From Raillietiella orientalis (taxonomy: Eukaryota), in the NCBI GenBank assembly GCA_036172245.1, contig JAYWIR010000008.1, forward strand, positions 2,480,001 to 2,544,000: DNA of 64,000 bases, in the 5' to 3' direction. Positions within the stretch are counted from its first letter, which is position 1; the number at the start of each line of letters is the position of its first letter. A model generated the notes under the pieces. It was not told the origin of the DNA. It did not search any database and was given only the letters and a program-made list of their open reading frames with translations. Below, one piece after another: positions 6,001-63,000 of the stretch. The position numbers and the translations under genes are program-made.

Positions 6001-7432
6001 GTCTTCCACCAATTACTTCCTTCCTTTGTTTGACAACAAACCCTAATTCTTTGATATGATATGGCTATCACATTTCTTTAGATATTCTGTAAACTTTAAT
6101 GAACAGACTAAAGGAAATACATAAGCCAAACCTTGACATTCATTAATTTTTATAAAAATGGAAACGGAAATTAACATGTTTATGCTCGGTTTTGTACAGA
6201 ATTTTCGAGTAACTAATATCAAACAACATATTTATTACAAAACATATATTGCTGTGTAATGAATGGTTCAATTAATTTTTGATATGATTTGATATGCAAC
6301 TATTACATACTCCAAAATATTCCTTACTAATTATTCATACGATGCACTAGTCACTTACAACTATTCTTGGCTTTTCTCCCATCATTGGAATAATTAACTA
6401 TTATTCATTGGAATAATTAATCTATTACTTCATTTAAGTTATGACCAGAGATCATGTAGCTATCTTTCATTTATGATGCAATATCATTTTTTCACACAAA
6501 TTTCTTGTTTTGTTACTTCTAATTTGCAACAGTTCCAAATCAACTGTTGATATAAGCTGAATTCATCAAACTCAAATGCCTCAAATTTGAAATTTCAAAA
6601 TTGATACAACAAAGCTGTAATGAAATTTGTGATTTGCCTTTTTTTAATACCGAAAATTTACATTTAGGGTTCATCAGAAATTGAATACTAATCTAATTTC
6701 TACATTCAAATTCATCATGTAAGCATTTTGAAGGCTTCAAAGTCAAAACCATTAGCATTAAACACCAATTTGTGATACCAAAAACCTTCTCATTTTCATT
6801 CTTTTTCTCTCTCGCCTTTAATCTTTAAACTGCATTTAGCAACATTTCTATTTAACTTAATTAACCTATTATTAATCCAAAACAAAGCAGATACTGATTT
6901 TTATCTATGACCAAAAACATTCAAGTACTCATTCTGAATTTGTTAAGTGCTTACACAATGTGAGCAGACTATTTTCCAGATGTGCAAAATCTAATTACTG
7001 CTCAAATTTTTTGGATTTCCATCACAAACATCAAGAAATGCATCTGTTTTCACTCGTTTATTTAATCTCCAGCACAATCATTTATTTTTATAGTACTCCA
7101 TGAAATTACATGCAATTGGGTAGAATTAGAACCAATAACATTTCTTTCTCAATTTCATTGTGCTATTTCATTTCTTTTACATATGGATCTTACAGGCATT
7201 TCATTAGATTCACTTGTAATATCATTGAGTGATTTATTTTCATTCATAATTCACAAGAACATTTCAAATCAAAACTGATAAACTCACTTTTTTGGGAAAC
7301 TGCAGATCTAGTTAAGGCTTGAACACTTTTCCCACCACCTGGCACCATTGTCTCATCTGGGTCATAATCACTTCCAGATGAATCAACATCAGAATCATCA
7401 GTATCAAATTTTGAAGCTTTTTTCATCGATGA
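1..7432 (-). CDS. sno: Protein strawberry notch homolog (SBNO1/sno/let-765), multi-exon, 3' part runs off the window; the first exon may lie further right
   Basis: Exons encode SBNO motifs: [17 protein letters not shown] (1618-1522), [31 protein letters not shown] (1470-1261), [67 protein letters not shown] and [18 protein letters not shown]. An N-terminal exon at 7432-7288 ([13 protein letters not shown]) resembles arthropod Sno. Introns are GT-AG, many about 40-60 nt. Confidence 0.95.
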
Positions 7433-10400: not shown

Positions 10401-12020
10401 TTATTTTGTGTAGTTCGTTCAATCATATGGAGACTTTATTGGTCTTTTCCCACACAAATAGTTTTGCATATCTAAATCCTCACGAGCTCTCGCAGTTGCA
10501 TTCACAACTGTGCAGATCTCGTATTCAGTTAAGCAGCAGTGAACATGTTCTTGTATAATCATGGATCAGTTATTGAGATTATTGATTAAAAGAAAGTTTT
10601 CAATCAGTTTTTATTCATCGAGTATATTTGCTTGTTATCTTTCCCAAATTAATTCTATGTTCCTTATCTTTCAAGAGAGGAGGAAGATGAAGATCCTCCT
10701 CTCTTCGCAAGCTATTCAGCTATGCATGATTAAGGTCTTTTAATCATTTAATTATCGACCACCATGTAAATAATAAACCTTATGCTGGAAGTATTAGGTT
10801 TTCGTTCATTAACAGAAGCATTCAATAGTAAATATTAAATGGAGTAATTTTTCTTAACCACATCTAATTATCATAGTACGTTTTCGAATCAAATCAAAAA
10901 TAATGATCCACTGATAACAACAAAGAATAAGCGATCTTTAAAACGTTCATAAGTTGAGTTTAGCAGGTGAAGGTTGGATTTTAGAACCCTGCAAACTGGG
11001 AGATGCACTGAATTCAATGGAGACTACTATATAGGAACCATTACAGAAAATAAGCACATTGAGAACAAAGCAATTTAACAAATGCATAGGAAAATAATCA
11101 GCGCAATTGTCATTTACGTTCAGCTTTTATTTATGAATAATGGATTTTCTAGATTGCCCTATTGTTTTTACCATCATTATCATTAGTATTTATAATGAAT
11201 GATCAAAATTGACGCGTTCAGTCGAAATCTGTAAATTTGTTCTCTATTCATTCCTTGAACTGTATTTATATACAAACTCTTCTTAAGTACTAAAACAAAC
11301 TCAACTATCCGAATAGAACTAATAACTCATTACAATGAAATGAAATCATATTTCTAAAATGCCATTTTATTGAAAGCAGTTTAATACAAGGGAGGATAAA
11401 AGTAGGAAAGCTAAGAACTTTTGCACTTTATACTTAGGTCATTTGCTTATTAAAGAGAAACAATTTTCTGTATTCTAGTCGAACGTCTGGCATCTTAAAT
11501 TTTCAATGCATTGTTTAAATTCAAATTTTTTCCAGCATATTACTGCATTTTTCAAGATATCTGATTTGTGTTATTTTTCTCATGAACAAATAATTCAATA
11601 GACTACTGAATCATTATTCCTATGATATAGTTATCGAAAATCCCTGATCCTGGAGGAATGCATTCATTAGAAAAAACTAGACCACAGTTGACCTAAAAAT
11701 ATAAACAAATCATTGGTTTAATTGGAACTTAATATTCAACAGTCTCAATAATAAGTATTAACTAATGTACCAATTTTCTTCGGAAAGCTGTAAAACATGA
11801 AACATACGGAGTTTTTACACAAAATTATTGCTCATATAAGTGAGTCTTATAAATGAGGAAAAATTATTTTTCGTAATTTTAAACCGAATATTGTGTTTTT
11901 AATATAGAAGACCTTTGATATGCTCAAGATTTTAGTGATGGAGAAACCTTACATGCCTAAGCGCTGCAGAATTTTATTTCCGTTTGGATATCGTGTGCTT
12001 GCGTAGTGTGCTGTGGTGTA

Positions 12021-13245
12021 ATGGCTCCAAGAAAGGTAATTTTAAGGTTGATTAACAAATATTAGAAAATTCATTTTTATTGTTTTGTCTGCATTTTCTC
12101 GGGATATCCGTATAATTAAGCGCTACTTTTGCAGAATTAGAAGTTGCCTTCTGTAACTGTTCATGCAAAAGTATTTCCCATGTGTTGGGGCTCCCGAGTT
12201 TTACTGTAAATACTGTAGGCATAAGTTTCTCTGTATTACCCGTAATTAATATACCAGTGATTTTTAATTGCTATATGTCTGTTGTAGTTACTAAAGAATA
12301 AGAAAGGGAAGAAAAAGATTGCCCCGGCCCCAATTGTTGCAACAAAAAAAGTTGAAAGAAAAAAAGTAGTGAATCCGTTATTTGAGAAAAGGCCTCGTAA
12401 TTTTGGCATAGGTACTTTATGGTATTTGTGTCATGTTCCAAGTCTTTATTCACATGGTTTATAGGACAATGCATTCAACCAAAAAGAGATTTGAGCAGGT
12501 TTGTGAAATGGCCCAAGTATGTGAGATTGCAAAGACAAAAGGCAGTTCTGCTTCAGCGCCTTAAAGTACCACCTCCTATCAATCAATTCAGACATACCTT
12601 GGATAGACAGACAGGTTATTCAAATTTAATTGCTTAAATTGTGGGATTTAAGTAAAATCACATATAATCAAATAATTTTTCCACACTTGATTAACAATTA
12701 ACAGATTAAATGTGTTTTCAGCGCTTCAGCTGTTCAGACTTTTGGATAAATATAGACCAGAAACAAAGCAAGCTAAACATGAACGCTTAAAAGGGATTGC
12801 TCTGGAGAAGACAGCTGGGAAAGTTAATGTTCACAAAAGACCTTTATCTGTCCGTCATGGAGTGAACATGGTTACGAAACTAGTGGAATCAAAGAAAGCA
12901 CAACTGGTTGTCATAGCGCATGATGTTGACCCTATTGAATTGGTCCTGTTTTTGCCTGCACTGTGTAAAAAAATGGGTGTAGCATATTGCATTGTGAAAA
13001 GCAAATCACGCTTAGGTCGTGTAGTACATCGTAAGACATGTACCAGTGTAGCACTTACACAAGTAAACCCTGAGGATCGATCTTCCTTTAACAAGCTGTT
13101 GGAAGCAATTCGAACAAACTTTAACAGTCGTTTTGATGAAATACGGAAACTCTGGGGAGGTGGACAACTGGGAGCCAAGTCTGCCGCTCGTATTGCAAAA
13201 TTAGAAAAAGCCAAAGCAAAAGAATTGGCACAGCGGGTTGCTTAA
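12021..13245 (+). CDS. rpl7a: 60S ribosomal protein L7a (eL8); exons 12021-12035, 12288-12411, 12465-12614, 12722-13245
   Basis: Spliced product [66 protein letters not shown]. All introns are GT-AG and phase-compatible; AATAAA at 13247. Confidence 0.98.
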
Positions 13246-16200
13246 AAATAAAACATCATGCTAAATTAAATGTGCACTTTATGTTTGTTTATTTCTAGTT
13301 TTGCTAACAATTAATGATTGTTTATTTGTTGAAAGAGTTTATTGTTTGTTGAAAGCAATAACTACCACATATTTTAATGAAATTCGTGTTCTATGAAAAA
13401 ATGAAAGCGGACTAAATTACATTTAGTTGGAAACCGTTTCCTAACGTAATGAAACTTTGTTGGAAAGTTTGTGGCTGTAGTTTTTGTGTTAGCAGATGTG
13501 TGGGTTGGGATGATCAAAAAAAAAATTAGTTTTGCATTACAAGAATCGTACTTTACGGAAGCAACAGTAGGATATGTTAACATTAATGGAAGTGGAGGAA
13601 TGTTCTCTTGTGGATTCTCTAATTTCAGCTGATGGACTTCAACCAATGTGCTTTTGATTAAGATTTTGATACAGCAAATGAATCTGATTACCACGTTGAT
13701 CTTGTTCATTGAATTGGAGAAAACATTTTCTTATGGAAACTATATGCAAGTAAATAAGTGATAATTGACTTTTGCACCCTTGCTACATTTAATCAGATTT
13801 AGATAAAATTAGTAATGTTTGCAGTACAGACCAAAAAATTTTTCAGAATTAGCATCATGAATGTGCTTTTTGTGGAAATTAAGGTGATGTCATGGCTAAA
13901 GTTCTTGATAAGAGCAAAATACTTAATAAGGGATTTGATAACTAGAATAACTTTGTGACTTGCTTCCAAGGAATGCATCTATGTACACTTGTTTCCAAAT
14001 GGTAGTTATGGATTTTTTCATGCTTGAAGTGCTCTTGGAAACTTCAGGCTTATCAAATGCATCAACAGAAGTCATGGATTCATTATTAGAAGGCATATAG
14101 TCATTAAAGCCAGCCAGTAACAGTAAAAATGAAAATTTGGTTCATTGGAAATTGGTTTGGATGAATAAAGTGCCTGTTTTTTGCTGCAATTGTGCTAGAA
14201 GCAATCAAAGTTACTCATCACATCCGAACCTGCATCTGTTTGCTTTTGTCAATAGGGATTGAGAAACGCTCTGTGGCTGGAGTGTTATCTATGGTATGAG
14301 CAGAAATTCAGCATTCAGATAAATTTCAGTGAACTCGAATGCAGCATAAGAATGGCCATGAAGTTCCATAGAATGCTTTACAGAAAGCACCACACCTATG
14401 TAATGATTACGTACTTGAGTTGCTCTTTATTTGTGGATTAATATTCGAATTTTCAGAAGTGCTTTGAAACTAGTGGTAACTAGCTGTTTTATTTTATACT
14501 GTCTTCATCCTGAAACCTAGGGGTAACCGGATTTTAACTAAGTGTAGGTAAGGTATTAGTACAAGCTCAACAGGAAGAGTTGCAACATGAGATTTTTCTT
14601 GCAACCCAAGATCTCATCATCCACAACTTTTAATAAGTCATAAGGTGTTACATACATTTTTTCCCGATTTAGGTAATTCGGTGATGGGTGCTTGGGCATG
14701 TAACTGTTGAGCCTGAGACTGACCAGTGGTTGTGTTTGCATTCACTCGAATCGTTTGCATGTGGAAGTGCGGAATAAAAACGCCTTTTTGATACAAATGC
14801 AATTTTTGAGTGTGTGTGTGTGTTTTGGTTTAGAAGATTTTTTAGCTGAAACAGGTTGTTGGAAATTGGCTCCTCGTTTTTAGTTTTTCATGAACTTCAA
14901 CACAGTCATTTCATTTTCGGCTCTTCTTACATCAACGCTGGACATATTACTCGTGTCATGAGTCTGGTCAAGGGGGCCAAACTCACAAAGGGCGCGAGTC
15001 TGCATTCCATAGCCAGACTGTTTTTATTTATTCTGACAACACTGTGAATTAACCAATTCCATTGATAAATTATCAAATTTCATTTATCGGCTGCTTGACG
15101 AGCTCTGCAAATGTGGCATTTGATTTAATGCTTCGTTGTTGATTTTTCTAAAAGTTTCCTCAAAAGTGGAGGTACATTCTCAATTTTTTTTTTCCCTTCC
15201 CCCCTTGAAAAGACATGCAACCAGCGGAATTGTAATATTAGTTGGGTAAGCCAAGTTTAAGCGCCAATTTATATCTCCGATTTATGCTCAGATGACCCGT
15301 GCTGGTACGTGGCACTCTTGCTGGGTTCTGTCTCAGCGGGCAGCAAGACTTCGCCCATCGGATGCGGCTCCCATGCACCTTCTGTTGCCTCGACCTCCAG
15401 TGACTCCAGCACTGCTGCTGCAACGTGTCACGTTTCAGTCGGGATGGACGCGCAGCCGCTGGACCCCTCTCGTGATGAAACCATCAAGATTTGATGCGGA
15501 GGCCGTCCACAGTAGCTGATCTATCGCGGCAATCCACATGTGCTATTTGCCAGCGCCATCTCAAAGTGTGGCTAGCAGAGGTTGCAAAGTGGCGCAAATA
15601 CGGGAACCCATCGTAATTACCATGACTCTCATGCGTCGGGAAATGGATGGCAAATCTGGCCACCTGAGGCCACCCGTGCGTGAGGATTTTGTGCAAGTCT
15701 CCAGTTGACCGGTGATCTCATTCATCGTTCCTTCCCCACCGTTTCCTTATGTGCACCCTTCAAAACCACCCATCTCGTTATGGGTGGCCCAGTCCAGTTC
15801 TCCATACCTATTTATTTATTTTTGCCTCCCCATCAGCCTCCTTCAACCCTTTCCTCTCTCTTGTATTGAAGACCATCGTGTAACGACTCCTCCGTTTATT
15901 CTAATTTATTTTACACGTGTATTCATATTTTTGCATGCTTGCTTTATATGTAGTAAGTAGCCCTGCGCGACCGGGATGAAAAGATTCCTTTCTTTCTTCT
16001 TATTTGGATAAGCAGGGGCACCCTCACAGCCACCAGTCTGAGGAGACCAGGATGTGGTGCCGCCGAGATGGAAAATGGCAGAACGTCCACTTTCATCGCT
16101 CGTCGTTGGCCTTGGTAGGCTACGTGAACAAGTAGATTTTTTTCTTACGTTTTACCGTCTCCAAGATTCAGTATTCGTGTGTACCTTTTGATATCTCTCA

Positions 16201-17629: not shown

Positions 17630-20600
17630 TTTTTTTTTTTTTTTTTACAATCAACTCTCAATCTGCTGTTCCACGACTCCGAGTGTTCCTATTATTTCAC
17701 TGTTCAGCTCCGGGGAATTCATCTTTGTGCCTGGACATATTCGTCCATCTTCAAATGGATGTAACGATATGTCCAGGCTGGGATTCTGCCACAGTTTCTA
17801 ATTTCTATTTCCTTTTGGACTAATCCTTTTAGTATATCCCATGCTGGCACTTGTATTTGTAGGGTATATATCTTGGCTCTTCTAATTGTAATAGCTGTGA
17901 TGAAAAGAGGGAGTGTGGTTATCACCATCGGGTTGTATTGGGGAACAATTCCTGTCCCCCAAAATCATCCCGATAGGATTTCCTTTGCTGTTTTTCCTTG
18001 TAAACATATCACTGCCTTTACCGCTTGCCAATCGGATTGTAATGTTTGGCAAGTGAACACGTGCTCCTGGTTTTCGTAGTTGCCACATGCTTTGCATAAA
18101 CCATCTTGTATGTCTCCGGTCCAGTGATGTATTCTGGATCCACTCAGTATGCTTCCGTTGAGGAACAACAGGAGGTCGTTCTTGGGTATCCGGGGGAAGA
18201 TCGTTCCTCATGAGAGCAGCCCCTGCGGCCAGCACATTCGCCTGCTCTGGGCCATAGCGGCTGGAGGCTTCTTCAGGGGCATCGGGATTTTGTAGTATCT
18301 TCCCTATCTCTGTCTTGATATTGGCTTTGGTCATCAGCATCCACTCCTGGTGCGGCTTTTGTTTCCAAAGCTCCCTGGTTTGGTAATCAAAGGAGTCTCT
18401 CAAGGTCATAGTCAGATTATATAATCATAACGAAATATAATCGCAGCTGATGTCTGTTCGCACTTGTGGCGAACTGCACGCAACGTCTGATGTTCAGTTG
18501 TGGCCTTTGATGTAACCAACTCACCGTCTACCTTGGGATCGCGATAAAGTGAGGTATCACCATGGCCTACTCTTCGTCCCAGATTTCACAACTTGTAGGC
18601 ACAATTTTGAATTGGTGGATTCTCACCAGTGCTCGTTTGCGACTCCATGTGGGATCGATATCTATCCAGTCTCCAGTGGCTCCTATGAGCGCAGACTATG
18701 AGGCCTTTGGAGCTGTTCAACAATCTCGAGTATGCCCGATGCGCTGCATAAGGCCAATTGCCCCAATTTTGGGTGAGGTCCAGGAGCTGCCGTGCATCCA
18801 TGGCCTCCACGGAATGTTCCAGCAGTTTCATACCAGTTCCCCAATGATCACGAGGTCGGCATAGAAGTTTCAGTCTTACTCTGGGCTTAAATTCTCTCCA
18901 TAAAATTTTCCTTTCTAAGGCTTCAATTTCCACTTTTGTCTTCTTGTCTATTCGACAGAAGGTCGCTCCATAGAGAACCTTGGGAAGCAGGACACCGTTC
19001 CACAAGGTGGCCCTCCGTTTCATATTGAAGTCGACACGGGTGTATTTTGTAGCCTCGTCTCTAACTTTACCCAAGATTTCTTTCCCCATATACTGTGATG
19101 CCGTCCTATCGCCAAGATGGATTCCCAGGTATTTAACAGATTCTGCCTCTCGGAATCCAGCTTCTTGCAAAGCAGAGAGGTGCATGATCCCGATTGGCAG
19201 CAGGTGACTCTTCTGGGCATTGATTTTTAGTCCCAATCCCCTTTCCATTTGCTTGATTACACCTAGGAATGCTTGTTGATCTCGTTCGTCCTCAAGCAAG
19301 AACAAGAGATCATCCGCATACGCCAGGTGTGTCAACTGTTGATTATCTATCCTGATTCATTGTAGACAGCTGCCGGGGTCCACGATTGCTGATACCGCTT
19401 CCATATACAACACGAACAGCATTGGACTCAGGGTATCACCTTGGCGTACACCCCTTTCCATCCGAATTGCTGTCGTTTCCAAACCATTGATACGAATCTT
19501 AACTTGTTGTTCTCTTGGTTCACTCTACATGGCGTAGGAAGGAACTTGGGAATCCTAGTTTTTTCAAGATTTTTAAGAGCATCTCGTGGTCCACCGTATC
19601 AAATGCCTTCCCCATATCCGTGAGCCCTAGTACCAGGTTTTCACCGATATACCGGCAATATCTGATGGTGGCCAGGGCACACTTCACATTTGCAAACATG
19701 TGTCGTCCTGGGACTGAGCATGTCTGTGTTGGAGACATGACTGATGGCATTGCGATGCTTAGGCGGTTGGCCCAGATCTTGGCCAGCCACTTCTCATGGT
19801 TGAGGATGGTGACCGGCCTCCATTGGGTGACTTCCAACAGGTCGCCTCCCTTTGGCAGCAGTTTCATCCGCTCTTCGTGGGATGATGGTGGGAGCCTTCC
19901 TTCTTCTTGGATTACCTGCGCAAGTTCGTGGAACAGGCGAGGGTAGGCATGCAGGTACCTCTGACAGTGTGTGATGGGTACACTATCAGGCCCTGCTGCC
20001 ACATCCTTGCGTAGTTCTTTGAACGCCTCTTTAACTTCCTCGATGGAGGTTTCTTCATTCATTTTCCCTTGGTGTTCCCTTTTTACTTGCATGTACAAAT
20101 ATCTTAAGATATTTGACTGCTCTGTCAGGCACAAATTTCTTCGTCGCAAGTGGGAGTCGTAGTGATGGAAGAAGGCCTCGGCAATTCCTTCCGATGTGTA
20201 CCTGACTTCATCCTTATGACGGATAGAGAGAATATCAGTAGCGATGTTCCTCTTTCCTAGTACTCCAACTTCTACTTTGATGTGCTTGAGGACGTACCTG
20301 TTCTCATACTGTTTCCAGTATTTTGAGATCGCGATACGCTTCCATTCTCATCTTCCTGTCGCCATATTGCATATTGCAAAACAAATGGATTGTTCGCTTT
20401 AACCTGTCCCAGTCGGCGACTCCGCGGATCATGGTATTTCTCAGAATCACTTCGATTAATTCCTGGTGACAGGGATGCGATTCAAACCAGTTGGACATCC
20501 ATTCTAGTACAGCCCTTGCGCCTGCCCTCCTTCGGGGATTCTCCGTCCGCAAAATAAATCGGAGCAAGGGGTGGTCCGAGAGTACAGATGGGATGTCCCG

Positions 20601-43394: not shown

Positions 43395-44570
43395 ATGAAA
43401 CTTATCATTGATGTGGATGCTGGAGTAGATGATGCAGCAGCTATGTTCATTGCCCTATCAGCTGTGCAAAAAAATCTTGCAGAAATAAAGGCTATCACAA
43501 CAGTATGTGGAAATACTACTGTTGAAAATGTGTGTATCAATGTGATGAGAACTCTGAGAGCCTTCTCCATGCAGGATGAAGTCAGAAAAATCAGTTTGGA
43601 AGTTTTGAAGACTCCTGTTCATTTCAGATATCTGTATATAAAGGCTGTGGTCTGCCATTACTAGAGCCCCAGATCAAGTCTGATTATTACTTTGGAATTG
43701 ATGGATTTGGTGACATGCCTCCTGAACCATCCCTACTTGCTAAAATCCAAGACAAGCATGCAGTGTTTGCAATGATGGAGTTTGTGAATGCCCATCCTGG
43801 TTGGTGAAAAAATACCCTAAATTAGTATCTATTAAAATGCATTACTTTAAGGGGAAATTACACTTATTGCACTTGGACCACTTACTAACTTGGCTGTAGC
43901 AATAACATTAGACCATCAATTCACCAAAAAACTGAAAGCACTTTACATGATGGCTGGAAAGTCAGAAGGTGATTTACATTTAAATTCTAACTCCCAAGTT
44001 TGAGGACTTCCAGTTTAAAAGCTTGGAATTTTACAGCAGTAAGGAGTTACTGTAGTGATGCCTTGCATTTTCAGTTACGGACAATAAAATACCGGTTGGT
44101 GAATTCAACATCAGCTGTGACCCAGAGGCAGCACACATTGTGTTTCGAAGTTTGCAATGCCCTGCGTATCTTGTACCTTTTGAAGTGACCTTGCAACATG
44201 GCATACCAATGGTAATATTCCGGAAATAATTCCTTGATCACATGGCTGAAAGGTTTGGCGAACATCCGTTCTGGGTGCCATCGCCAGTCCTCAGGCACAA
44301 CTGATAAATGCGGCTGAGAAACTCACTCTGTCTGACGAGATGTGGTTCCTATGTGACCCCCTTGTGGTCGCAGCTTCGCTGTTCCCAAACATAGTCAAAA
44401 AATCACAATCCTGCCATGTCGTTGTGGAACTTCATGGAACTCACACGAGAGGACAGATGCTCCTGGACCATGACTCAGTTTTGGGCAAAGAGCCTCAAGT
44501 CCATCTGATAACCGAACTGGATCTTGAGCTACTGAAAAAGATCTATCTAGATAGTTTTGGTCATGAATAG
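43395..44570 (+). CDS. Inosine-uridine preferring nucleoside hydrolase family protein; exons 43395-43580, 43628-43799, 43852-43968, 44075-44211, 44253-44570
   Basis: Motifs [11 protein letters not shown] (DxDxxxDD), [48 protein letters not shown] and [12 protein letters not shown]. All introns are GT-AG and in frame; AATAAA at ~44595. Confidence 0.93.
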
Positions 44571-45233: not shown

Positions 45234-45385
45234 CACGTATACATTCGAGCCGGCCAGTCCTCTACGTACAGGTTTGAGCCGGCCAGTTCTCCACGCGCAG
45301 GTTTGAGCCGGCCAGTGCTCCACGTGCAGGTTTGAGCCGGCCAGTTCTCCACGTACAGGTTTGAGCCGGCCAGTTCTCCATGCGT
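45234..45385. repeat. Tandem array of a 29-bp unit (GAGCCGGCCAGTTCTCCACGTACAGGTTT), about 5 copies
   Basis: Units start at 45247, 45276, 45305, 45334 and 45363, with few substitutions. Confidence 0.95.
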
Positions 45386-45500
45386 ACTGTTTTTACGGCA
45401 TATTCCTTCACGCGCAGACAAGCCCACCAGTACACAAAAAATTCCCAGACACTTTACTGTTACCCTTTCAGCATCCCCACGAAACTCAGATAACACGTAG

Positions 45501-45529
45501 TTAGGTGGGTAATACTACACACCACCTGA
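45501..45529 (-). promoter_or_regulatory. Rolling-circle replication origin: stem-loop with nonanucleotide TAGTATTAC
   Basis: Plus strand AGGTGG GTAATACTA CACA CCACCT. GTAATACTA (45509-45517) is the reverse complement of TAGTATTAC; AGGTGG (45503-45508) pairs with CCACCT (45522-45527). The nonamer lies about 75 bp upstream of the Rep ATG. Confidence 0.85.
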
Positions 45530-45592
45530 ATGTGCATCTCCTCAGTATATATACCACTTTCTTCACTCAGTCGTTTCGCAGTCTTACCAAAC

Positions 45593-46802
45593 ATGTCTTA
45601 CGCTGCTTGCACTCACTGGTGCCTAACTTGGAACAATTACAGCGATGAAGACCTCGACAACATCAAGAAATGGTGCCGTCTCAACTGCTCCCTCGAAAAC
45701 ATCAAGAAATGCTGCGATGATAGCATCGCAAGAGAGGAAGGAGAACGAGGTACTCCACATTTCCAAGGATACATCCAGCTACACGAGTCAAGAACACTTC
45801 CACGAGTTAGACGACCACCTTTCTCCAAACGCCACCTGGAAAACGTCAAGGGATCTGCTAGTCTACCGTACTTCAGCAAACAAGATAGCCAACCATGGAT
45901 GCCTCGACGATAACCCAGGAGAAGAGCACTATGAGGAAAAGGTAATGAAAACCAATTTAATCTTCATATCTTTTGATTGATTCTTTCCAGATCCTTCAAC
46001 TTACCAAGTCCGGTTACAACGAGAAATATATACTGGAACACCACACACGCTTCTATAGCAAAAACATCAACTTTATCAAGGAGTGCTTCAGAGTGTACAG
46101 CAACGAGTCAGCATTAAATCCAATGGCATCACTTCGTTTACGCCAATGGCAGCTTGACGTCCTTGCCATCCTACGAAGACCTCCGTATCAACGAAACATC
46201 TACTGGATCAAGGACGCCAAAGGCAATACAGGAAAAACAACTTTTGCCAAATTCCTATTCCTGCGAAGACATGCAATTTACATGCAAAGTTGCAAGAAAG
46301 CCGACGCTGCCCTTCTATACAACGGCGGCCAGTCATCGTGGTCGACTTCACCAGAGACGCCAAAGACCCGGTACAATACGGCTTCATAGAATCTTTAAAA
46401 AATGGAATCCTCTTCGACCCGAAATACCAAGGGTCAATAAAGTATTACGAAACCCTTCACGTCATCGTACTGGCAAACTGGGAACCCGACTTCAGTAAGC
46501 TCAGCTACGATCGTTGGACAATCATCGACAATAATCATTCCGTCAGGAAGAAAACAGCGTGGACAATGGACGACAACGGCTCAACAAATCAAGCCTCCCA
46601 GGGAGAAAAGAAGCACAAGAAGCTAGTCGACCGACGGACGAAGTTGAGGTCCACTAGACGGTCACGGCAACGAGCCACGACGGTCGCCGTGGACTCGCGG
46701 AGATGCGATGCTTCCAAGTGGAAGTGTTCTCAAGAGGGGCGCCGACCAGCACCCGAAGTGGACTTGACGTGGAACGTGCTGCTCGAGAGGGCATTAATTT
46801 GA
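45593..46802 (+). pseudogene. rep: Endogenous CRESS-DNA virus-like replication protein (HUH endonuclease + SF3 helicase) with a 49-nt intron and two frameshifts
   Basis: RCR motif I WCLTWNN, motif II TPHFQGY, motif III YFSK; LRQWQ; Walker A GNTGKT (46222-46239), Walker B IVVDF, YGFIESLKNG, motif C VIVLAN, Arg finger SYDRW. Frameshifts near 45900 and 46330; intron 45942-45990. TATATA at ~45546. Confidence 0.93.
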
Positions 46803-52890: not shown

Positions 52891-55655
52891 TTCCACCCGC
52901 GCACGCCAGAGTGTTTATTAGAATTTAAAATGAACTTTCAAACCGTGGTAGGAGACGTGGTCCTACCACACCCCATTGTGGTCCATTGGTCCATGGACCT
53001 TCCGGGTCGCCAATGCGCAGACCAGTTGGGCTCCCCTCGGCAGCGAAAGGGGATGGAAGAAAAGAGTAAATAAAAATAAATAAGAATCTTTAGGAGGGTC
53101 GGGAAGGGACCACTGTCCACTGGGAGGGAGTCTACATCCGATACGCCGGGTCCGCGGATTCAGTTTCCGACCCGCGACAGGCACCAGATGAGTCAGGTCG
53201 CACCATCCAGGAAAAGAAAAAAAAAAGAACACGCAACCAAAGGATGAGTCTCCCTATCGGCCGAACAGCATCCTTCACGGAAGTGGCTCGCGCGTCACGG
53301 ACGCAGGGTGAGCATCGCGTTCCCGGAGAAGCGAACACGAAACACCTGGGAGGAAAGCGACGAAAAATCCGGTCGCAGCTGCATCCCGTGTCAAGAAGAG
53401 CAAGGTCTTCCGGGCAGGAAGGGAAGTGTCGGAAGAGGCGATCTCTTGGAAATGTTTGCGAATGATAAAAACGTCACGGGAAACGTGCAGCCCGTTTGGA
53501 AATGAAGTCGTGTCAACAGCTGGAAAGAGCCGGTGAGTTTCGTGGGGTGATACCTCCCAGGATTAGTGCGCACCAAGATGTGCTCACACCGCTTTCAGAG
53601 GTACTGATGATGGGCTCCTCATTCAATTTTGCTGCTTTCCGCGTTCTTCCAGTTCTTCCTTTTTTTTTTCTTTTTCTTCCTTCGATTGTTTTGTTCGCTC
53701 AGTGACTCATCGACCGTTGCTTCACCCCACGGAGACATCGGAGAGGCTCGAAGACGCCTCCCTCCTCCCCTTCTCCCTTGCAGCTGGGTTGAGCGTAAGA
53801 CAAATAGTGGGGCTTCCCGAAGGGTCCACTTTCAAATCCCCCCGCTACTAGCCAACGGGGCAGCCGACCGCTTTCCCGGATGCACTCCCGAAGCCCGAGC
53901 CATCCCAGCGTCATCTTTCGGGAGGACTCAGAACCCGCAACGCATGCAGCTCAACGTCGATCTTTATGGAGCTGATTCTGAACAGCCCCGCTAGGCGTCG
54001 CGCACGGATGCCGTGGCTACACGGTCTCCTATGCGATATTAGCGCTCGCAATGCAAGGAGCTCTATCCCGGCTCATTCTAGGGACGTCCCCACAAACACT
54101 GAAAGCCAAACTCGCTTGCCAGGAGATTGCATCTCAGTCAAGCGAGCCCTGTTGCTATCGGATCTGAATTCTTCCTCGGTCCACCTTTGCGCAAGCAGAC
54201 CTCTTCCAGTGCGTCATGATGCACCATGTTCCAGGCTTGGGGGATCAGGAATCGCTCCACGGAACGCGAAGGGTAACTCAGTCGCGTAAGGGGACGGCCG
54301 GGAAGAGAATTCTTGGGCGAAGCCTGCGCCGATGTCGCAGCGGACCGGCACGCGGAGGGTCCCGGAAAGCTCCCTGCAGGCTTCATTGCGGGCGACGGGG
54401 ACTCGTCGAGGAATGGGGCATCTCTCCCGGCTTCTCCCCTCCCTTCCCTGCTTGTGGGCAGCGGACCCGTTCCACGGAACGCAGGGTGGTTTGAAGGATG
54501 GCCTGCGGCGCATGTGTACGACCCACGCCGCCGGTAGAGGCAGAGGGGCAGACTGAGCGAGCGTTCTCCGATGCCCAGGAGCCGGGCCGCCGAGGAGTCC
54601 CGGCGAACGCAACGCTGCCACATCTGGTGGAGGGAAGGACCACTGCCGAAGACGGGGCGCGTCCGCCTTCGTCAGGGTCGATCCTTCCCACTTTCCGAGC
54701 CCAGTCGCGGGTCTCTCGTGTTGGACGCGACCACCCTTCTCCCCGTCGGACGAGCCAAAGGGTGGCCAACAACTGGAGGGATGATCGAGTGAGTGTACGT
54801 CCGCCTTACCGACTCCCTTTTTTTCCCTCTCTCTCCGGCACGCCTTTCTTGCGGAGCCCAGCGCGCGGGTCTCACTCGTGTTGACATCCCGGCAGGGAGT
54901 TCGTCGATTCTCCCTGCGATTCGGGTCACCTCCGGGCAGAGCAGGCTCGAAAACCTCTTTGGAGCCGAGTGGACAGGGAAATGGTACGAAGACGACGAGA
55001 GGATGAGTACGTCTGCCGGAAGTGTCCACCTGCAGAGGGATTGGAGAAAAGTCCTTGGCGGAGTTCGTCGCCCGCTGGCGCAGACTCCTCTGGGTTGAGC
55101 TACCGGCTGCGGGATCGGGGTCTCCCCTAGCTCATCTGCCCGCTGGCTACCCCTGCCCGTGGGCGCACCTGTGGGTCCACCCTGATGCGTGTGGCCTCGC
55201 CGGAGGGGTTGGTCGGTACTTCGCGATCTCCTGTCGGCCGCACCTCGCATCAGGAAGCGACGACCGGTCCCTGAAGCCGGGACCGATCCGTCCCGGCGCA
55301 TACCCCCAAGGATTGTGTGGCCGCGCTATCTGCCCGCGGCGGATCGCAGGAACAGAGCGCCTCGGTTGCTGCCGACACTTCTATCCCCCAGGAGTTGAGT
55401 GGGGCGTCCCGGCCCCACCGGGACGGGGAGGAGGGGAGCGAGGACCGCTTAGTCGATAGTCCCGAGGTTGCCGCTGTAGCTGCGAGCGGGTGCGCTCGAG
55501 AGGTTCCGTACCTGAAGGAGCTCCCTCAGGGAGCGGGAGTAAAGGGCAGATGAGAGGAGGGAAAGGGAGAGAAACATCTTCCGGGAAGCTTGTTATTCAC
55601 AAGGATTTTATTTCCGGTGCCCCAGGACAGACGGGTAGCGGACCCGCAGCGCCGA

Positions 55656-56504
55656 CTACGTCTTCTTCACGACGGGCCTGGCCTTTCCGTAGGAGGGCTT
55701 TGACTTGCGCACCTTCTTGGGTCTTCCGGGCTTCCGGGGTGTCGAAGGCGGCTTGGCCCGGCCCTTGGGCGCCTTCGGCTTGGCAGCCTTTCTCGCCGGC
55801 TTCCTCCTCCTGCTCTCCACGCCGTCTTCCTCGTCGCCAGCTTCTGAGGACTTGGCCGCCGCCGCTGCGGGCTTGGGCTTCCTCTCTTCCACCTTCTTGT
55901 CAGCGGCAGCCTGCTTGGGCGACTCTGCGCGCTTCTCAGAGGGGGAGGCCTGCTTGGGCGACTCTGCGCGCTTCTCAGAGGGGGAGGCCTGCTTGGGCGA
56001 CTCTGCGCGCTTCTCAGAGGGGGAGGCCTGCTTGGGCGACTCTGCGTGCTTCTCAGAGGGGGAGGCCTGCTTGGGCGACTCTGCGCGCTTCGCAGCGTCG
56101 TCCTTCTCCGCTTTCTTGAGCGCCTCAGCATCGCTGCCCTTCTTGGCGGCGGCGGCGGGCGCCGCAGGTGCGTCCTTGGAGGGTTTATCCCTCTTCCTGC
56201 GCTCGAGAGGATGGATTGCGGCCCGCGCCTCCACGGTTTCGTTCAGGACCTGCGGCGGAAGCGCCCTTCACGTTCGGACCGGGGCGCGCAGGGGTGGCCG
56301 GGACTTACCTCCACTCCGGAGATGGCGACGGGGTTCGCGACGGCGGCGGCGACGCAGCAAAGGGCTGGAAGGAGAGGAGAGCCGCTCGGTCCGTGGTCCG
56401 CCCTCACTCCTTCCCCTCCCCCCCTCCTCCCCCATCCCGCCGGCCCACTCACCGATGGCGAGCACGGCCAGCATGGCCGCCACGGGCAGGGGACAACGGC
56501 ACAT
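55656..56504 (-). CDS. Secreted, Lys/Ala/Pro/Ser-rich basic repeat protein (~233 aa); exons 56504-56453, 56364-56309, 56249-55656
   Basis: Spliced N-terminus MCRCPLPVAAMLAVLAIALCCVAAAVA (signal peptide), then NPVAISGVEVLNETVEARAAIHPLERRKR. Strong donors GTGAGT and GTAAGT with compatible phases; upstream TATATAA; AATAAA at 55612-55607. Confidence 0.8.
55909..56091. repeat. Coding minisatellite, 39-bp unit x about 4.7 (AESPKQASPSEKR)
   Basis: Units start at 55909, 55948, 55987, 56026 and 56065; nearly identical. Confidence 0.95.
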
Positions 56505-56594
56505 CTCTGGCGACGACACTCTAGGGTGCGGGGGGCTTCGGCTGGACACTGGAGTGGCGACTCCTTTGCTCCGGGGACCTGCAGGGGAAGGTCT

Positions 56595-56628
56595 CGACTG
56601 CTCCGCGTGGGCCGCGGAGGGTTATATA
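56595..56628 (-). promoter_or_regulatory. TATA box plus Inr-like core promoter of the secreted basic protein gene
   Basis: Minus-strand TATATAA at 56628-56622 stands out in GC-rich context; an Inr-like GCAGTC has its A at 56599, 29 nt downstream. Confidence 0.65.
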
Positions 56629-57439
56629 CCGCACGACGTCGCCAGGTCACTGACCTGCCTCGACTCGCGCTTGAGGCTGCGCCTCCCGCGCGTGACCTCG
56701 AGCGTCGTTGTGCCCACCCGCTGCAGTCCGACAGCCCAGCTGCCCCTTCCCCTGAGCCCCAGGGACGCCGTCGACCGGCCGCCGAGCCCAGACACCCCCT
56801 ACCCAAATAACCCCCGGGGATGAGGAAGGGAACATCCTCCAGGTCCCCGACGGAACCCCCCGGTGAAACAGCTCGAATCGACCACTCCCCTCCCTCTCTA
56901 CTTCCGATCCTTTGCCAGTCTCGTTCGGCGCACGCGAGAGAGCGCCGGTCTCTCTGGTCCAGCGTCGGGAGGCTACCCGGCTGCCGCCGCCGCTGCTGTT
57001 GTTCCTCCCCCTCCGCCTCGGGGTGCGCTCGTGCCGGCGTCGCCGCCGCGACGGCAGAGGTCGCAACCTCCGCGCGAGCTACAGGGTTGCCGACCCCGAG
57101 GAGACCCTCCCTTTGTTTGCGCACGCACGCCCCCTGCTGTTCCCCATCTCTCCCGCCTCTGGCAGTCGCGAGAGCGAGGAAGAAGCTACGGTCGGCAACG
57201 GGGAGGAGCCCCTCGTCCCCTACCCTTCGGGCGCGGTGGCGCCGGAGTGGAGAAAGATCCATGCCACCCTCCCTCCCTTCCTGCCCTGCAAGGAACTCTT
57301 CCGCCCTTCCCCCCTCCCCCTTGGAGCGGGCCTGCTCTGGAAAGGAACGAAAACGAGGTGGGATGAAGGGTGGGGACTGCGCGTGCGCGCACTCCTTCTT
57401 TATGAGGGTTTCCTATCACCGCCGTCGGCGGCGCTCGCG

Positions 57440-60080
57440 TCAGCAGCAGTTGCGGATCCTGGTCGAGGAATCGCTGGACTCCCTGCTAGCAATCTGGAAA
57501 GGAAAAAGAGGAGGCGCGTAGGGAAAGAGGGGGAGGAAGGAGAGTGAAAGGGGCTACTCACCCTCGACTGCAGCGACCGGACCTTGTCGTGCTCCTTGCC
57601 CAGGGCCGAGCGGTACTCACACTCCACCTGTCGGAAGGAAGGGGGGAAGAGGGGGCTGGTCAGGAAGCAGGAGGAGGGGGGAGTAGCGCCCTCACCTTTG
57701 TCTTCAGCGTATGGTAGTGCCTCTCCGCCGTGCGGCGGCGCTCGCGCTCTGCCTCCAGCTCCTCCGCCTGCTGTATGCGGACTTGATCCAGCTGCTTCCG
57801 GAGGAAGGAGGCCTCCTCGGGCCCCAGGGCGGTCTCCTTGTAGGCGGCGAACTCTCCACGAATGTGGTCCACCTCGGCGCGCAGGCGCTCGGTCCGATCG
57901 CCCGCCATGTCCCGCTCTGCACGGCAGCGTTCCGCGCAGGCACGGACATTCCGTAGCTCGCAGGCCGTCGCCTCCGTCTCCGCCAGCAGGCGGCAGCACG
58001 TGTCCTTCTCGCGCTTCAGGGCAGCCTCCCTACTGGCCAGGTCGTACTGCAGGCTGGTCAGGTTGGCCTCCACTCGCGTGACCTGGGGGTGATGAGTGGT
58101 AGTGGTGGTGGTAGCGGTGGAAGGTCCGCACCATGGGAGACGCTTGCTCAGTGTCCCTCCCCTCCTCGACTCCCCTCCTTTCTTCCTTTCCCCCCCTCCT
58201 TTCTTCTTCTCATTCCTCACCTGGGACTTCAGGCTGTTGAACTGAGCCATTGCCTGCTGCCGGTCCTCGTCGCAGAAGTCGAGCAGCCTGCGCTGCTCCT
58301 CCAGGCCGCGCTGAGCCCGCGCTGGGAGATCGCGTAGGTCGGTGCGGGCTCTCTCCACCTCGTGGCGCAGCGCCTCGCCATGCCTGGCCGCCCGGTCGAC
58401 CTCCGTCTGCAGCTTGCAGCACTCCACCTGGTGCAGAGCAGCCTCCGCGCGCAGGGATTCGATCTCCTCCACGTGCAGCAGAGGATCCTCTCTGCCGCCT
58501 CGCGCCGCTTCCTTTTCCAACGCCTTTCCCTTCTCGACCACCACCACCGCGTCGGCCTTCTCGGCCGGGAGACGGCGGGACGTCGCCTCCCTCGGGTGTG
58601 CCCCTGCGGCGCGCTCCTCCTCGTCCGTCGTCTGGGGGCAGGCGGGATGGCCGCGCGTGGATGAGGTGCGAGCACGCGCGCCGAGACCTACCGGCTGCTG
58701 CTGCAGAGACTGCAGCTCCGCCTCCAGAGCGTCTGCGCGCGCCCTTTCCCGGCCGACCTCCTCGTCGGCGCTCCGCCTCAGGCGCTCCATTTCCTCCCGC
58801 GAGGCGGTCTCAGCCTGCTCCCGCGCTCGGGAGGCATCCCGCTTCACCTGCTCGCACTCCCGACGCAGCTCCTCCAACTTCTTCGCGTTCCTCTCCTTGT
58901 CCTGCTCCTGCTGTTTGATGCTCCAGAGCAGCCGCTCCAGGCTGGCGTGCAGGTTCTCCGCCTCCAGCTGCCGTTCCTCCAGCTGCTCCCTCCTCCTGCG
59001 CAGCTGCTTCTCTGCCTCCCGATGCAGCTCTTCCGAGCTTTGCAGCTTGCTCTCCTGCTTGGCGAGCTACGGGAAGCGCCTGGCAGGTGGGAGGGAAAGG
59101 AAGCGCGCCCATCGCCCGCGAGGAGCATTTCAAGCACTCCGAAGCCCCTGGCAACGCTGGATGCACTCTTTCGTCATTCTCCCGGTCCCATTCCCCTCCT
59201 CTCCCCTCCCAAAGGCGAAGACGGCAAGCAGTAGCACTCCTGAAGTCACTATCCCCCCCGGGGCAGCCTGGAGAAACGGAGGCGGGAGGACGCCGAGCTC
59301 CCCCGGCTCGCAAGGCCGACCTCCTCGTCGGCCTCCGCCTCAGGCGCTCCACTTCCTCCCGCGAGGCGGTCCTGGAACCCCCCTCTTTCCTCCTCCGCGG
59401 TTCCCAGGTCCACCGCCACCCCTTTCGCTCCTCTTCTCGCGGGAGCGCTCCTTTAGGCGCCGGGCTCTCCTCACGAGGTCTTCAGATGAGGAGGGAGAGG
59501 GGCGGAAGGGAGAAGAGCGACATCAAGAGGGGGGGAGGAGCTGCAGACCTTCGCTGTCGCCAGGGGACCACAGGCCTACCTTCTTCTTGAGCGTTTCCAG
59601 CTGCTTGTCATAGACGGATCCCTTCGTGGCGGTCGTCTGCCTCACGCTCTGCAGCAGGGAGCGCAGCTTCTCCACTTCCTTCCTCCTCCGGTCCAGGTCG
59701 TTCGTGATGCGGTCGAACTCCCCTTTCTGCCTCTCCATCATCCGGCTGAGCTCGGCTGTCTCCCGGCTGTAGCTCTCCGACACCCCTTTGAACTTCTCCA
59801 GGTCTCCTCTCAGCGCTTCCAGCTGCTCCCCGGAGAGATCCAGCTGGCTCTCAATGTCCTCGATGGGGTCCTTCGAGATGAACTTTCCCGGGGGGAAGGG
59901 GGGCGCCTCGCTTTCGGGCGGTCCCCTCGCTCGGGGGTACTGGTCCTCTGCCTTGGGGGTCAGTGTACCTTCGACCTCGTTCGGGACGGAGCTGTGAGTC
60001 GGGGTGGAGCTCCCCGAGGGCATCGCGTCGTAGTCGGCTGGGGTGGGGTTGGAGGATCGTCGGTCTTGCTTCGGCGGCAT
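57440..60080 (-). CDS. Orphan long coiled-coil protein (~597 aa); exons 60080-59580, 59066-58692, 58631-58221, 58082-57696, 57627-57562, 57493-57440
   Basis: All five introns are phase 0 GT-AG, most with clear polypyrimidine tracts. The joined frame is open and E/R/K/L heptad-rich (DIESQLDLSGEQLEALRGDLEKFK; LEELRRECEQVKRDA; VTRVEANLTSLQYDL). No family recognised; the terminal exon is less certain. Confidence 0.75.
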
Positions 60081-63000
60081 GGCTTCACTGAAACACGGTT
60101 GTTATCTTGGAGGGTGGGTGAGGGGGTGGGCAGTGTGATCCCCTTCGTACGTCTCGGGGGGGAGGGCAAGGAGAAGCCGGGCGCAGCACCTCGCTCTGTC
60201 TGGTCGCCCGACCCACCTCCTCCGTCTGCAACTCGCAGAGCCCTAGCCTGGATCCCTGCCCGAGGGTGGCCCCTCGGGTAGGAAACACGACGGCGAGGGC
60301 AGGCAGCGCTCCGGCTAGCTCGTTCGGATCGCCACAGCTTCCGCAACAGCCACAAGCAGAAGGTCCTGAGACGCATGAGTCGCCCTCCGCTGTAATTAGC
60401 TTTGCCCTGACACCGGTGGCTTCTCTGGCAGCCCCGAGGCCACGGCCAAGCCACTCGCAGCAAAGAAGAGGGTGGGACTCGAGTCACGTTCCACACCTTC
60501 GAACGACCCGTGACCGCTGTCCTTCTCCCGATCAGTCTTCCCGTTGCCGGAGATCCCTAGACTCCCAGTTTTACAACGCTCCGGTCGGGGTCCCGGCCAA
60601 GAGCCGAGACCGCTGACACCAAAGGCTGAATCTGATCTCCGGACAAGCCAGCAGACTCCTCCGGCGGTGGCGTCCTCACCCCGCGCCCAGTCCCGTGAGC
60701 GCCCACCAGCACGCACGCACAGAAGCTGGCGGTTCCCGCAGACGGGAATCGTGTCAGCGACACGCTCCAAGGCCATGCGAATCGCCGGGAGCGTCCGACG
60801 ACAGGCGTTCGGTCCAGCTCCTGAGCTCCACGCGACAGACGAAGCAGCTTCCGTCTCCTCCAAGGGAAACTACCGGAAGCAAAAGGCTCTCCCCGTTTAG
60901 CCCCGAGGCGAGCGCTTCGCTCGCCCATCACCGAGGAACACACGAGGCAGAGCTGTGAGGAACTTGCTCCAGAAGGACCTCTCACAGAAGGACTGGCATT
61001 TTCCTCGTCTTAACCTGAGTTCAGATGAGTCGTAGAAACGAATGTGTGAGGTCTAGTCAAACTCATTTTCGCAGGCATACCCAATCATTGTTTGGTTCGC
61101 AGGCACCTCGAAATGGACCATCTGAACGATGATCGTTAGCGCGGCTTCCCCATAAGACGTGCTTTCATTGTGTTGGATTGGCATCGTTCGTTGGGGTTTT
61201 GCCATTCTCTCCGATCACTTGCAGTTGTAAACCAAGCGGAGACGGTTTCCTGGTAGTTGAGCACGTGCGCATCCACACCCTACTGGTTTCCTTCCCAATG
61301 ACCTTGGCCTTTTAGCACTTGCGACCTCTGTTGCCAAAACATGGCTCTGCGATGAAGCTTACTGTGGCATCCACTTAGCACTTCGTATCGCTTCCGTACC
61401 GAAATTGATTATCGGAGAAACGGAAAGCCTTTTGTGCGATGAACAATACGCCGTGCTGCAGGCAGTTTGAGGCCATTTGACTGAAGCAACGAAACTCAAA
61501 CTTGAAATAAGAAATTCCACGGAAGGAAATCAGTAGCAATCAAAGTGTAGGGAACACGAAATGCATGCTTGAAGTATGAAACGTTTTCAGCACAGTTCAC
61601 GGTGCATTTCATCTTCATGTGCTCGAAGAAACTGTTTCAAACCGAAACACTTCAACTACAGTTTCTTTACGTATGCATCGGAACCGGCTTATGTTTCGCG
61701 TCTTTTATCAAAATTCAATTTCCTGTCAACTAACGCAAGATCATATCCAAGCCTCAGAGTGATTGATTTTCAAACAGATTCCGTGTTTATGTACCTTCAT
61801 TCCGCATTTGCGCCAAGAAAGGAGAATGGTGCATGACTTGGACCGAGACGTTGTTTTTCACTTCGGAAGATAGAGAGAGGTTTCCCTGGATTGAATCCTG
61901 CATCAAGCCGACGAGGCACATTGCTTCCTTCTTGAAATGATCTTTCCAAGAGTCATGTCCATTGAGCAGGGATAGAGTGAGCTGTTTTAGGCCTCCTGCC
62001 ACGAAGAAGGGAGTCCACTTCTTGTGACTCCTCATGCAAGAAGTGTTAACAAGCCCAGTAAGCCCAGTTTCATTCAGCAGTCCCATTTTGAACATTTTGA
62101 AGCGCTCTTAGAGCCACAGGGCATTTTAGCTACGAAAATCATGCGCTGACGAGATAGCTTTACGACAACCCCGAGAACTTGAAGCGACCGCGAACGATGG
62201 GCAAAGTCCCCACTGAGGATCTGCATTTGCTGATGAAGCAGGGCGTAGGTTCTGTCAGGTTTGCAGCGTTTCGTTCGCCTCTTTTTGCAGTTCCCACATA
62301 GCGGACTAACATTTCACATTCTCGCTACCACCTTCCCGAAGGAATGGTTTCCGTCACCATAACAAACTCGGCATTAAGGTATGGCAACTTTCTTTGAAAG
62401 GAAAACGCATACCCGCGCATTACAATGTGGCAGTTATCTTGGAACGTTCCTTACCTTTCAATTTAAGTTCAGGTTTGCTAAATTAAGAAGAAAATCAGAG
62501 AAGGGGGAGAAGAGTAGTGCTGCTGCAAAATAAAAGGATGAACAATAGCATTGCCATGGCTTCCATTTGATGTGCGGGGAAGGAAGAAAGAAAGAAAGAA
62601 AGAAAGAAAAGAAGAAAAAAAACACACACACAGACATAGGAAACAGAATTATGAATACCGTTGCTGTGCACTGTATACGAATACAAGAATGAAGATGGCA
62701 CTAGCCTCAACCACTCAGTGGCTTTAAGCCAGCCACTGTGCTCAGTATACCAAGCACATGAGCTGACTGGCTTGTAAGAGTCGTGGAATCGGTCAGTCAA
62801 AAGACGCATCGAGACGAAGAGTATCCCACAAAATCTCTGACAGTGAATTTGATGGAATATTTTTTTCATTTCGATTTTTTCATCAACAGCAGCAACGAGG
62901 AATGTTTTTATCTCGTGAACCAGTAATTTTCATAGTATCCTTGTTTGGTGCTTGTTACATGGTACTTCTCGCTTCCTTGAAGCTGATGGATCCTTCCCTA

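Follow-up and report, generated by a model that had tools for sequence, protein, structure and literature searches.

The window analyzed in this study, a 64-kb stretch of DNA, contains a gene that, judged by its motifs and homologs, is a Rep gene of a CRESS-DNA virus, with an HUH endonuclease domain and an SF3 helicase domain (Table 1; reading frames are numbered by position modulo 3). Translation of frame 2 from the ATG at 45593 gave a 106-residue product that ends at a stop codon at 45911–45913, and it is this frame that encodes the HUH domain, not the frame of ORF 45645 to which the first-pass annotation had assigned it. The HUH piece matched PF02407 (Viral_Rep) in Pfam with an E-value of 6.9e-7 and solved Rep nuclease domains in the PDB with a best E-value of 1.4e-4. 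It covered columns 2–97 of a profile built from 28 homologs (88.5 bits), the last aligned residue being the W encoded at 45896–45898. An exhaustive HMMER search with the same piece returned 439 library proteins at E ≤ 0.001 (best E-value 7e-10, 41–45% identity), and the 10 matches that were checked came from contigs of 1.1–3.4 kb, in keeping with CRESS-DNA virus genomes.

Downstream of the HUH piece, the first part of exon 2 and the C-terminal part of the helicase covered columns 116–229 (76.0 bits) and 227–300 (85.1 bits) of the same profile, respectively, and tblastn alignments of homologs gave further support to the helicase assignment. Their conserved motifs, which we take to be Walker A, Walker B, and motif C, are given in Table 1; no Pfam helicase family was matched by the separate helicase pieces at E ≤ 0.1. 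No in-frame stop codon was present inside any of the four coding pieces, and self-BLAST detected no second copy of Rep in the 64-kb window. The gene ends in a basic, K/R-rich tail (KKHKKLVDRRTKLRSTRRSRQR..., 46560–46802, plus strand) that extends about 80 codons beyond ...DRWTIIDNN and is reminiscent of the basic N-terminal regions found in CRESS capsid proteins.

Table 1. Positions of the Rep gene pieces, the neighboring viral features, and the host genes used for comparison.
Feature	Position	Strand	Description
SBNO-like gene (P-loop NTPase AAA_34, PF13872)	79–1521	-	introns of 51, 47, 39, 40, 45, and 47 nt
Nucleoside hydrolase gene (inosine-uridine, PF01156)	43396–44570	+	at least 5 exons; introns of 47, 52, and 41 nt and one longer gap
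Tandem repeat	45247–45380	.	29 nt, 4.6 copies, 92% matches, score 226; upstream of hairpin
Origin-like hairpin	45503–45527	-	6-bp stem AGGTGG/CCACCT, 13-nt loop; 76 nt upstream of Rep ATG
Rep HUH endonuclease domain	45593–45898	+	frame 2; motif I CLTWNNY, motif II PHFQGY, motif III YFSK
Frame break 1	45899	+	frame 2 to 0, between W (45896–45898) and C (45900–45902); homology to ...QDSQPW
Last part of exon 1	45900–45941	+	14 codons, frame 0, CLDDNPGEEHYEEK; fills profile columns 98–115
Candidate intron	45942–45990	+	49 nt, GTAATG...TTGATTGATTCTTTCCAG, GC 0.265, phase 0
Exon 2, first part	45991–46325	+	frame 1; linker/oligomerization region and presumed Walker A GNTGKT from 46222
Frame break 2	46326–46331 (approx.)	+	frame 1 to 0, between presumed Walker A and Walker B
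Helicase C-terminal part	46329–46802	+	frame 0; presumed Walker B VIVVDF, presumed motif C VLAN, ...DRWTI; stop 46800–46802

Viral Origin Features and Genomic Setting

The loop of the origin-like hairpin contains the nonanucleotide TAGTATTAC at 45509–45517 on the minus strand, opposite to Rep. This nonanucleotide occurs once in 64 kb, against an expectation of 0.18. Both the minimum-free-energy and the centroid structure contain the stem of the hairpin; the fold z-score is only -0.5, and the energy alone is not significant. Nanoviruses carry the nonanucleotide on the rep strand, and the location of the sole TAGTATTAC of the window on the strand opposite to Rep makes the earlier framing of the element by comparison with nanoviruses and alphasatellites doubtful. 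The 29-nt repeat upstream of the hairpin, also picked up by self-BLAST, may be an iteron-like part of the viral intergenic region. No Pfam capsid family was found in the open reading frames of 42.5–50 kb, and a tblastn search with 555 open reading frames from 78 related contigs gave no capsid-like match outside Rep in 38–54 kb. Rfam gave no match in the window.

About 1 kb separates the end of the nucleoside hydrolase gene from the Rep ATG, and the window also contains the SBNO-like gene, rpl7a, an exon for a CaMKII association domain (15980–16132), and reverse-transcriptase fragments. The latter comprise two RVT_1 fragments in separate frames at 18589–20347 on the minus strand, indicative of a decayed retroelement. 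In this setting, the locus at about 45500–46800 is, as read from the sequence, an endogenous viral element lodged in the chromosome of a eukaryote, probably an animal to judge by the gene set. The composition of the window is uneven: a block of 64–68% GC at 54001–61000, with long open frames in all six frames and no Pfam match, contrasts sharply with the 29–35% GC of 1–14000. Inside this block, at 55909–56095, a 39-nt unit is repeated in tandem (4.8 copies).

Frame Breaks in the Rep Gene

The reading frame of the Rep gene is interrupted at two sites in addition to the candidate intron. At the first break, frame 2 meets a stop codon 4 codons past the W that closes the HUH domain, and the reading passes to frame 0; the 14 codons that follow showed a weak match to the library protein P0153 (CLDDNPGEE/CTDDNPFEE, 7 of 9 residues, tblastn E-value 0.11). 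The second break was found in all nine printed tblastn alignments, in which the query residues on its two sides are contiguous (for example, residues 160–223 and then 225–291 of P0124), and the profile agreed with its placement. An intron was considered at each break and rejected, at the first for want of a GT nearby and at the second because homolog residues run on contiguously, leaving no spare residues and no room.

Both breaks remain after removal of the 49-nt segment and cut the reading frame, and therefore the present copy can yield no full Rep, whether spliced or not, although the first-pass annotation had named splicing as the requirement for one. The present copy is a pseudogene, a point overlooked in that annotation, unless the assembly is wrong at the breaks.

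A Candidate Intron between the HUH and Helicase Domains

The first-pass annotation had described a 49-nt intron in the Rep gene, and we found its position, its ends, and both flanking peptides as claimed. The segment begins with GT at 45942–45943 (GTAATG) and ends with AG at 45989–45990 (TTCTTTCCAG), with no second AG within it. With its flanks it reads AAG/GTAATG...TTGATTGATTCTTTCCAG/ATC, where the codon before the donor (AAG, K, 45939–45941) is in frame 0 and the codon after the acceptor (ATC, I, 45991–45993) is in frame 1, so that without the 49 nt ...EEHYEEK is fused to ILQLTKSGY... in phase 0, at a K/I junction. The homology profile places the nuclease and the helicase on either side of the segment, in support of the proposed location between the two domains.

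All three frames are closed in this region, frame 2 at 45911–45913, frame 1 at 45958–45960, and frame 0 by a TGA at 45978–45980, inside the candidate intron. The GT at 45942 is the sole GT in the frame-0-open stretch of 45900–45977, with none in 45870–45941, and the AG at 45989–45990 is the sole AG in the frame-1-open stretch from 45961. As possible signs of a branch point and a pyrimidine tract, TTGAT occurs twice, 10–14 nt ahead of the AG, and pyrimidines make up 8 of the final 10 nucleotides. A single larger intron bridging the HUH and helicase frames directly was also considered and rejected, as the GTs available upstream (45861 and 45868) would delete the catalytic Tyr or give the wrong frame.

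Splice Sites, Composition, and Length

To score the splice sites, a donor-plus-acceptor matrix was built from 12 host introns within the window. The candidate scored 13.5 bits, a value reached by 5 of the 12 host introns in a leave-one-out comparison. Among 8390 background GT..AG pairs of 35–60 nt, drawn from both strands of 14001–64000, 21 scored as high as the candidate or higher, including three of the training introns and the candidate itself (top 0.25%). When simpler criteria were applied (at least 4 of 6 donor matches to GTAAGT, a YAG acceptor, at least 7 of 10 pyrimidines, GC ≤ 0.30, and 35–60 nt), only seven segments were retained in 2 × 50 kb, again including the candidate. By our own arithmetic from the background counts, the chance of such a pair in the right phase within the permitted zone of about 78 nt is approximately 0.001–0.005.

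No other 49 nt of the gene are as rich in AT as the candidate, which has a GC fraction of 0.265; windows of this length across Rep average 0.45 (sd 0.07). No Rep window clear of the candidate fell below 0.347, and the AT trough and the segment occupy exactly the same position. The GC fractions of the host introns ranged from 0.22 to 0.40. Ten of the 12 are 39–53 nt in length, a range into which the candidate falls. The proposed match in size to host introns was borne out by the nucleoside hydrolase gene (Table 1) and by the 53-nt intron of rpl7a, which also has introns of 107 and 252 nt, and similar sizes were found in the SBNO-like gene, where one further intron has an ambiguous acceptor (36, 42, or 63 nt).

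Collinearity with Homologous Reps

The homologs were placed on the window by tblastn, and 28 of them were used for the profile. The profile alignment of the frame-1 piece begins exactly at the residue encoded by 45991–45993, and no translation of the intron aligned to the profile; relative to homologous Reps the 49 nt constitute an insertion rather than coding sequence, in agreement with the original proposal. With X placed at the frame breaks, the intron-less reading scored 267.2 bits, compared with 258.2–258.8 bits for six read-through variants. The spliced junction GEEHYEEK/ILQLTKSG reproduces the 16-residue G-to-G spacing of the linker GKRxDL......IxxG, as counted by hand in P0153, P0128, P0064, P0029, P0056, P0046, and the viral contig L064. 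The distance from the W to the second G of the linker is 23 residues when spliced and 39 when unspliced, against 24–32 in six homologs counted by hand. The two readings are not told apart by the spacing between motif III and Walker A (101–102 codons spliced, 117–118 unspliced): of 34 homolog rows, 23, including two with a doubtful motif match, have 97–119, a range that takes in both values, and the remaining 11 are at 60–86 or 124–147.

We considered whether the 49 nt were never an intron, being instead decayed coding sequence or a small AT-rich insert in which GT and AG stand at the ends by coincidence, so that the gene would have suffered three frame disruptions. Two other breaks occur within about 960 nt, and a third would be unsurprising. 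In addition, the unspliced spacing from motif III to Walker A stays within the homolog range, the tblastn alignment of P0137 extends four residues (DSFQ) into the segment, and the 14 codons before the donor are only weakly homologous. Against this explanation stand the rank of the splice-site score among the background pairs, the exact coincidence of the AT trough with the segment, and the restart of homology right after the AG, together with the gain of 8.4–9.0 bits for the intron-less reading and an unspliced distance from the W to the linker G that exceeds those of all six homologs counted. Simple arithmetic, before context is taken into account, also puts the odds that an arbitrary 49-nt insert has GT at its start and AG at its end at only about 1 in 256. 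On balance, we hold it to be improbable that the segment was never an intron.

The searches of the protein library, viral contigs, and metagenomes brought up no relative with more than about 45% identity. Exon 2, the HUH piece, and the C-terminal helicase piece were each used in word-indexed protein searches, all without a match, and when viral contigs were scanned with the first and the last of these, no close relative emerged; the scans with the HUH piece yielded only loci of 33–43% identity. One metagenome scan returned two loci, one of which is apparently the same contig as the related locus L082. A PDB search with exon 2 gave nothing meaningful.

Linker Introns in Related Viral Contigs

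We scanned 85 fetched loci in frames, one of which (L085) had no profile match, and found short GT-AG interruptions in the same HUH-helicase linker, between profile columns of about 101 and 109, in 5 of the 85. These five are unclassified CRESS viruses of the same Rep group, with a WxxDxxGNxGK Walker A and a long linker. The interruption is 32 nt in L064 (IMG/VR; GTATGT...TTTTTTTTAG), 59 nt in L079 (IMG/VR) and likewise in L080, with that of L081 inferred from identical profile coordinates, and 72 nt in L035 (IMG/VR). In each of the contigs with a linker intron, removal of the interruption restored .../GKRNDL.... As in the present copy, the interruptions in L064, L079, and L035 are AT-rich and lie in the HUH-helicase linker. 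The intron of the related contigs is, however, located 8 codons upstream of the present one relative to the IKSG motif and is in phase 1 in L079 and L035, and exon 2 of the present copy is only about 30% identical to theirs. As to whether the intron position is conserved among relatives, the linker is shared, and the site within it is analogous rather than identical.

This difference in site, together with the host-like splice signals and size, would fit a gain of the intron after integration, made by the host in a co-opted and once expressed Rep gene that later decayed. Several points nevertheless make a post-integration origin very improbable: the origin hairpin and the upstream repeats are still attached, as expected if viral DNA was inserted as such; the gene has been disrupted; introns are seldom gained; and free viral contigs of the same Rep clade bear linker introns anyway. 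Equally hard to credit is an explanation by assembly or sequencing errors, under which the breaks and possibly the segment itself would be artefacts in an intact, perhaps active, spliced Rep, since the hydrolase, SBNO-like, and rpl7a genes read cleanly exon by exon against Pfam profiles and neither break lies at a long homopolymer, even though none of the four coding pieces holds an in-frame stop.

Other features were noted among the related sequences. In L008, an interruption of about 67 nt (GTAAGC...CTTTAG, about 503–569) lies inside the HUH domain, between Rep motifs I and II. Four contigs (L009, L048, L053, and L077) hold two Rep copies each, which suggests multimers or assembly concatemers.

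Discussion

The 49-nt segment is very probably a spliceosomal-type intron in the HUH-SF3 linker of an endogenized CRESS-DNA virus Rep gene, to judge from its ends, its composition, and the alignment of homologs around it. That it is a true, ancestral intron of this gene we consider likely. According to the history that we propose, the locus at about 45500–46800 would be an endogenous copy of a CRESS-DNA replicon, comprising the origin hairpin and the Rep gene, and the segment would be a U2-type (GT-AG) intron that was already in the gene when the viral DNA integrated. Because the intron is retained in the insert, viral DNA rather than a spliced mRNA would have been the integrated source. While the ancestral gene was intact, the host spliceosome would have fused its nuclease and helicase exons in phase 0, and retention of the intron would have led to a stop at the TGA within it, giving a nuclease-only product comparable with RepA beside Rep in mastreviruses. 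The present copy is dead, its frame broken near 45899 and at 46326–46331.

Mastreviruses (Geminiviridae) have a short GT-AG intron, with a length not a multiple of 3, between the nuclease and helicase parts of Rep/RepA; their unspliced frame ends early and gives a nuclease-only protein, and Rep and the nonanucleotide are on opposite strands. The present locus resembles them in having a candidate GT-AG intron in the linker with a length not a multiple of 3, a frame-0 stop codon inside that segment, and a nonanucleotide opposite to Rep. It differs in its Pfam match, PF02407 being of the circovirus/nanovirus type, in its nonanucleotide TAGTATTAC, in its shorter intron, and in its host, which appears to be an animal-like genome and not a plant. 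The RepA-like product had been proposed as the outcome of unspliced RNA, ending at 45980. A frame-0 TGA is indeed present in the intron, but the HUH frame has already stopped by then, at 45911–45913, where translation from the Rep ATG ends; a RepA-like isoform would therefore apply only to an intact ancestor.

Intron-split Reps have been described in other CRESS-DNA viruses. They are reported for cycloviruses, with introns of about 170 nt (PMC9241739), for arthropod CRESS viruses with predicted introns in Rep (PMC6186406), and for 36 cruciviruses in which the HUH and helicase parts of Rep are in different frames and split by an intron (PMC7468197), the last account also referring to the splice sites of maize streak virus. 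The three groups share with the present locus a predicted GT-AG intron between the HUH and SF3 helicase regions of Rep. They are free genomes with intact exons, in contrast to the present copy, which is integrated and frame-broken and has an intron of 49 nt, about a third of the length given for cycloviruses. Spliced Reps are thus already known from mastreviruses, cycloviruses, and cruciviruses, and the present locus adds another case.

The locus also resembles endogenous CRESS- or circovirus-like Rep elements in being a Rep-only fossil with frame breaks, situated among host genes and retroelements. Such Rep fossils are common. The present copy differs from them in retaining the origin hairpin and the intron. 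A limited literature search returned no published account of an intron retained in an endogenous CRESS Rep element, from which we do not claim that there is none.

Most CRESS viruses have no known host, and Rep introns are among the few sequence clues that they use a eukaryotic nucleus. A viral gene that lies inside a host genome and has an intron of the size and composition of host introns would link a virus lineage to a type of host without culture. An adaptation of the element to the spliceosome of this host, as proposed from the outset, may reasonably be inferred from these features. More tentatively, and in our view rather less likely than not to hold in full, the 49-nt host-style intron may be the signature of an unclassified CRESS lineage that replicated in this short-intron animal lineage, with a Rep/RepA switch tuned to a minimal-intron spliceosome, in which case intact, spliced, and perhaps active copies or an exogenous virus would exist in the same genome or host. 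If this were true, intron length could be used as a marker by which orphan metagenomic CRESS viruses are assigned to hosts, and the 32-, 59-, and 72-nt introns of L064, L079, and L035 would indicate further hosts with short introns. In practice the gain is a modest one, as the copy is dead, the principle of a spliced Rep was already known, and splicing at this locus is deduced from sequence.

Many of the top library matches of 80–200 residues (P0007, P0008, P0054, P0154, and others) are HUH-only and end shortly past motif III. Intron-split Reps may be under-called in metagenome protein sets, and P0054 resembles the exon-1 read-through of a gene of the L035 type.
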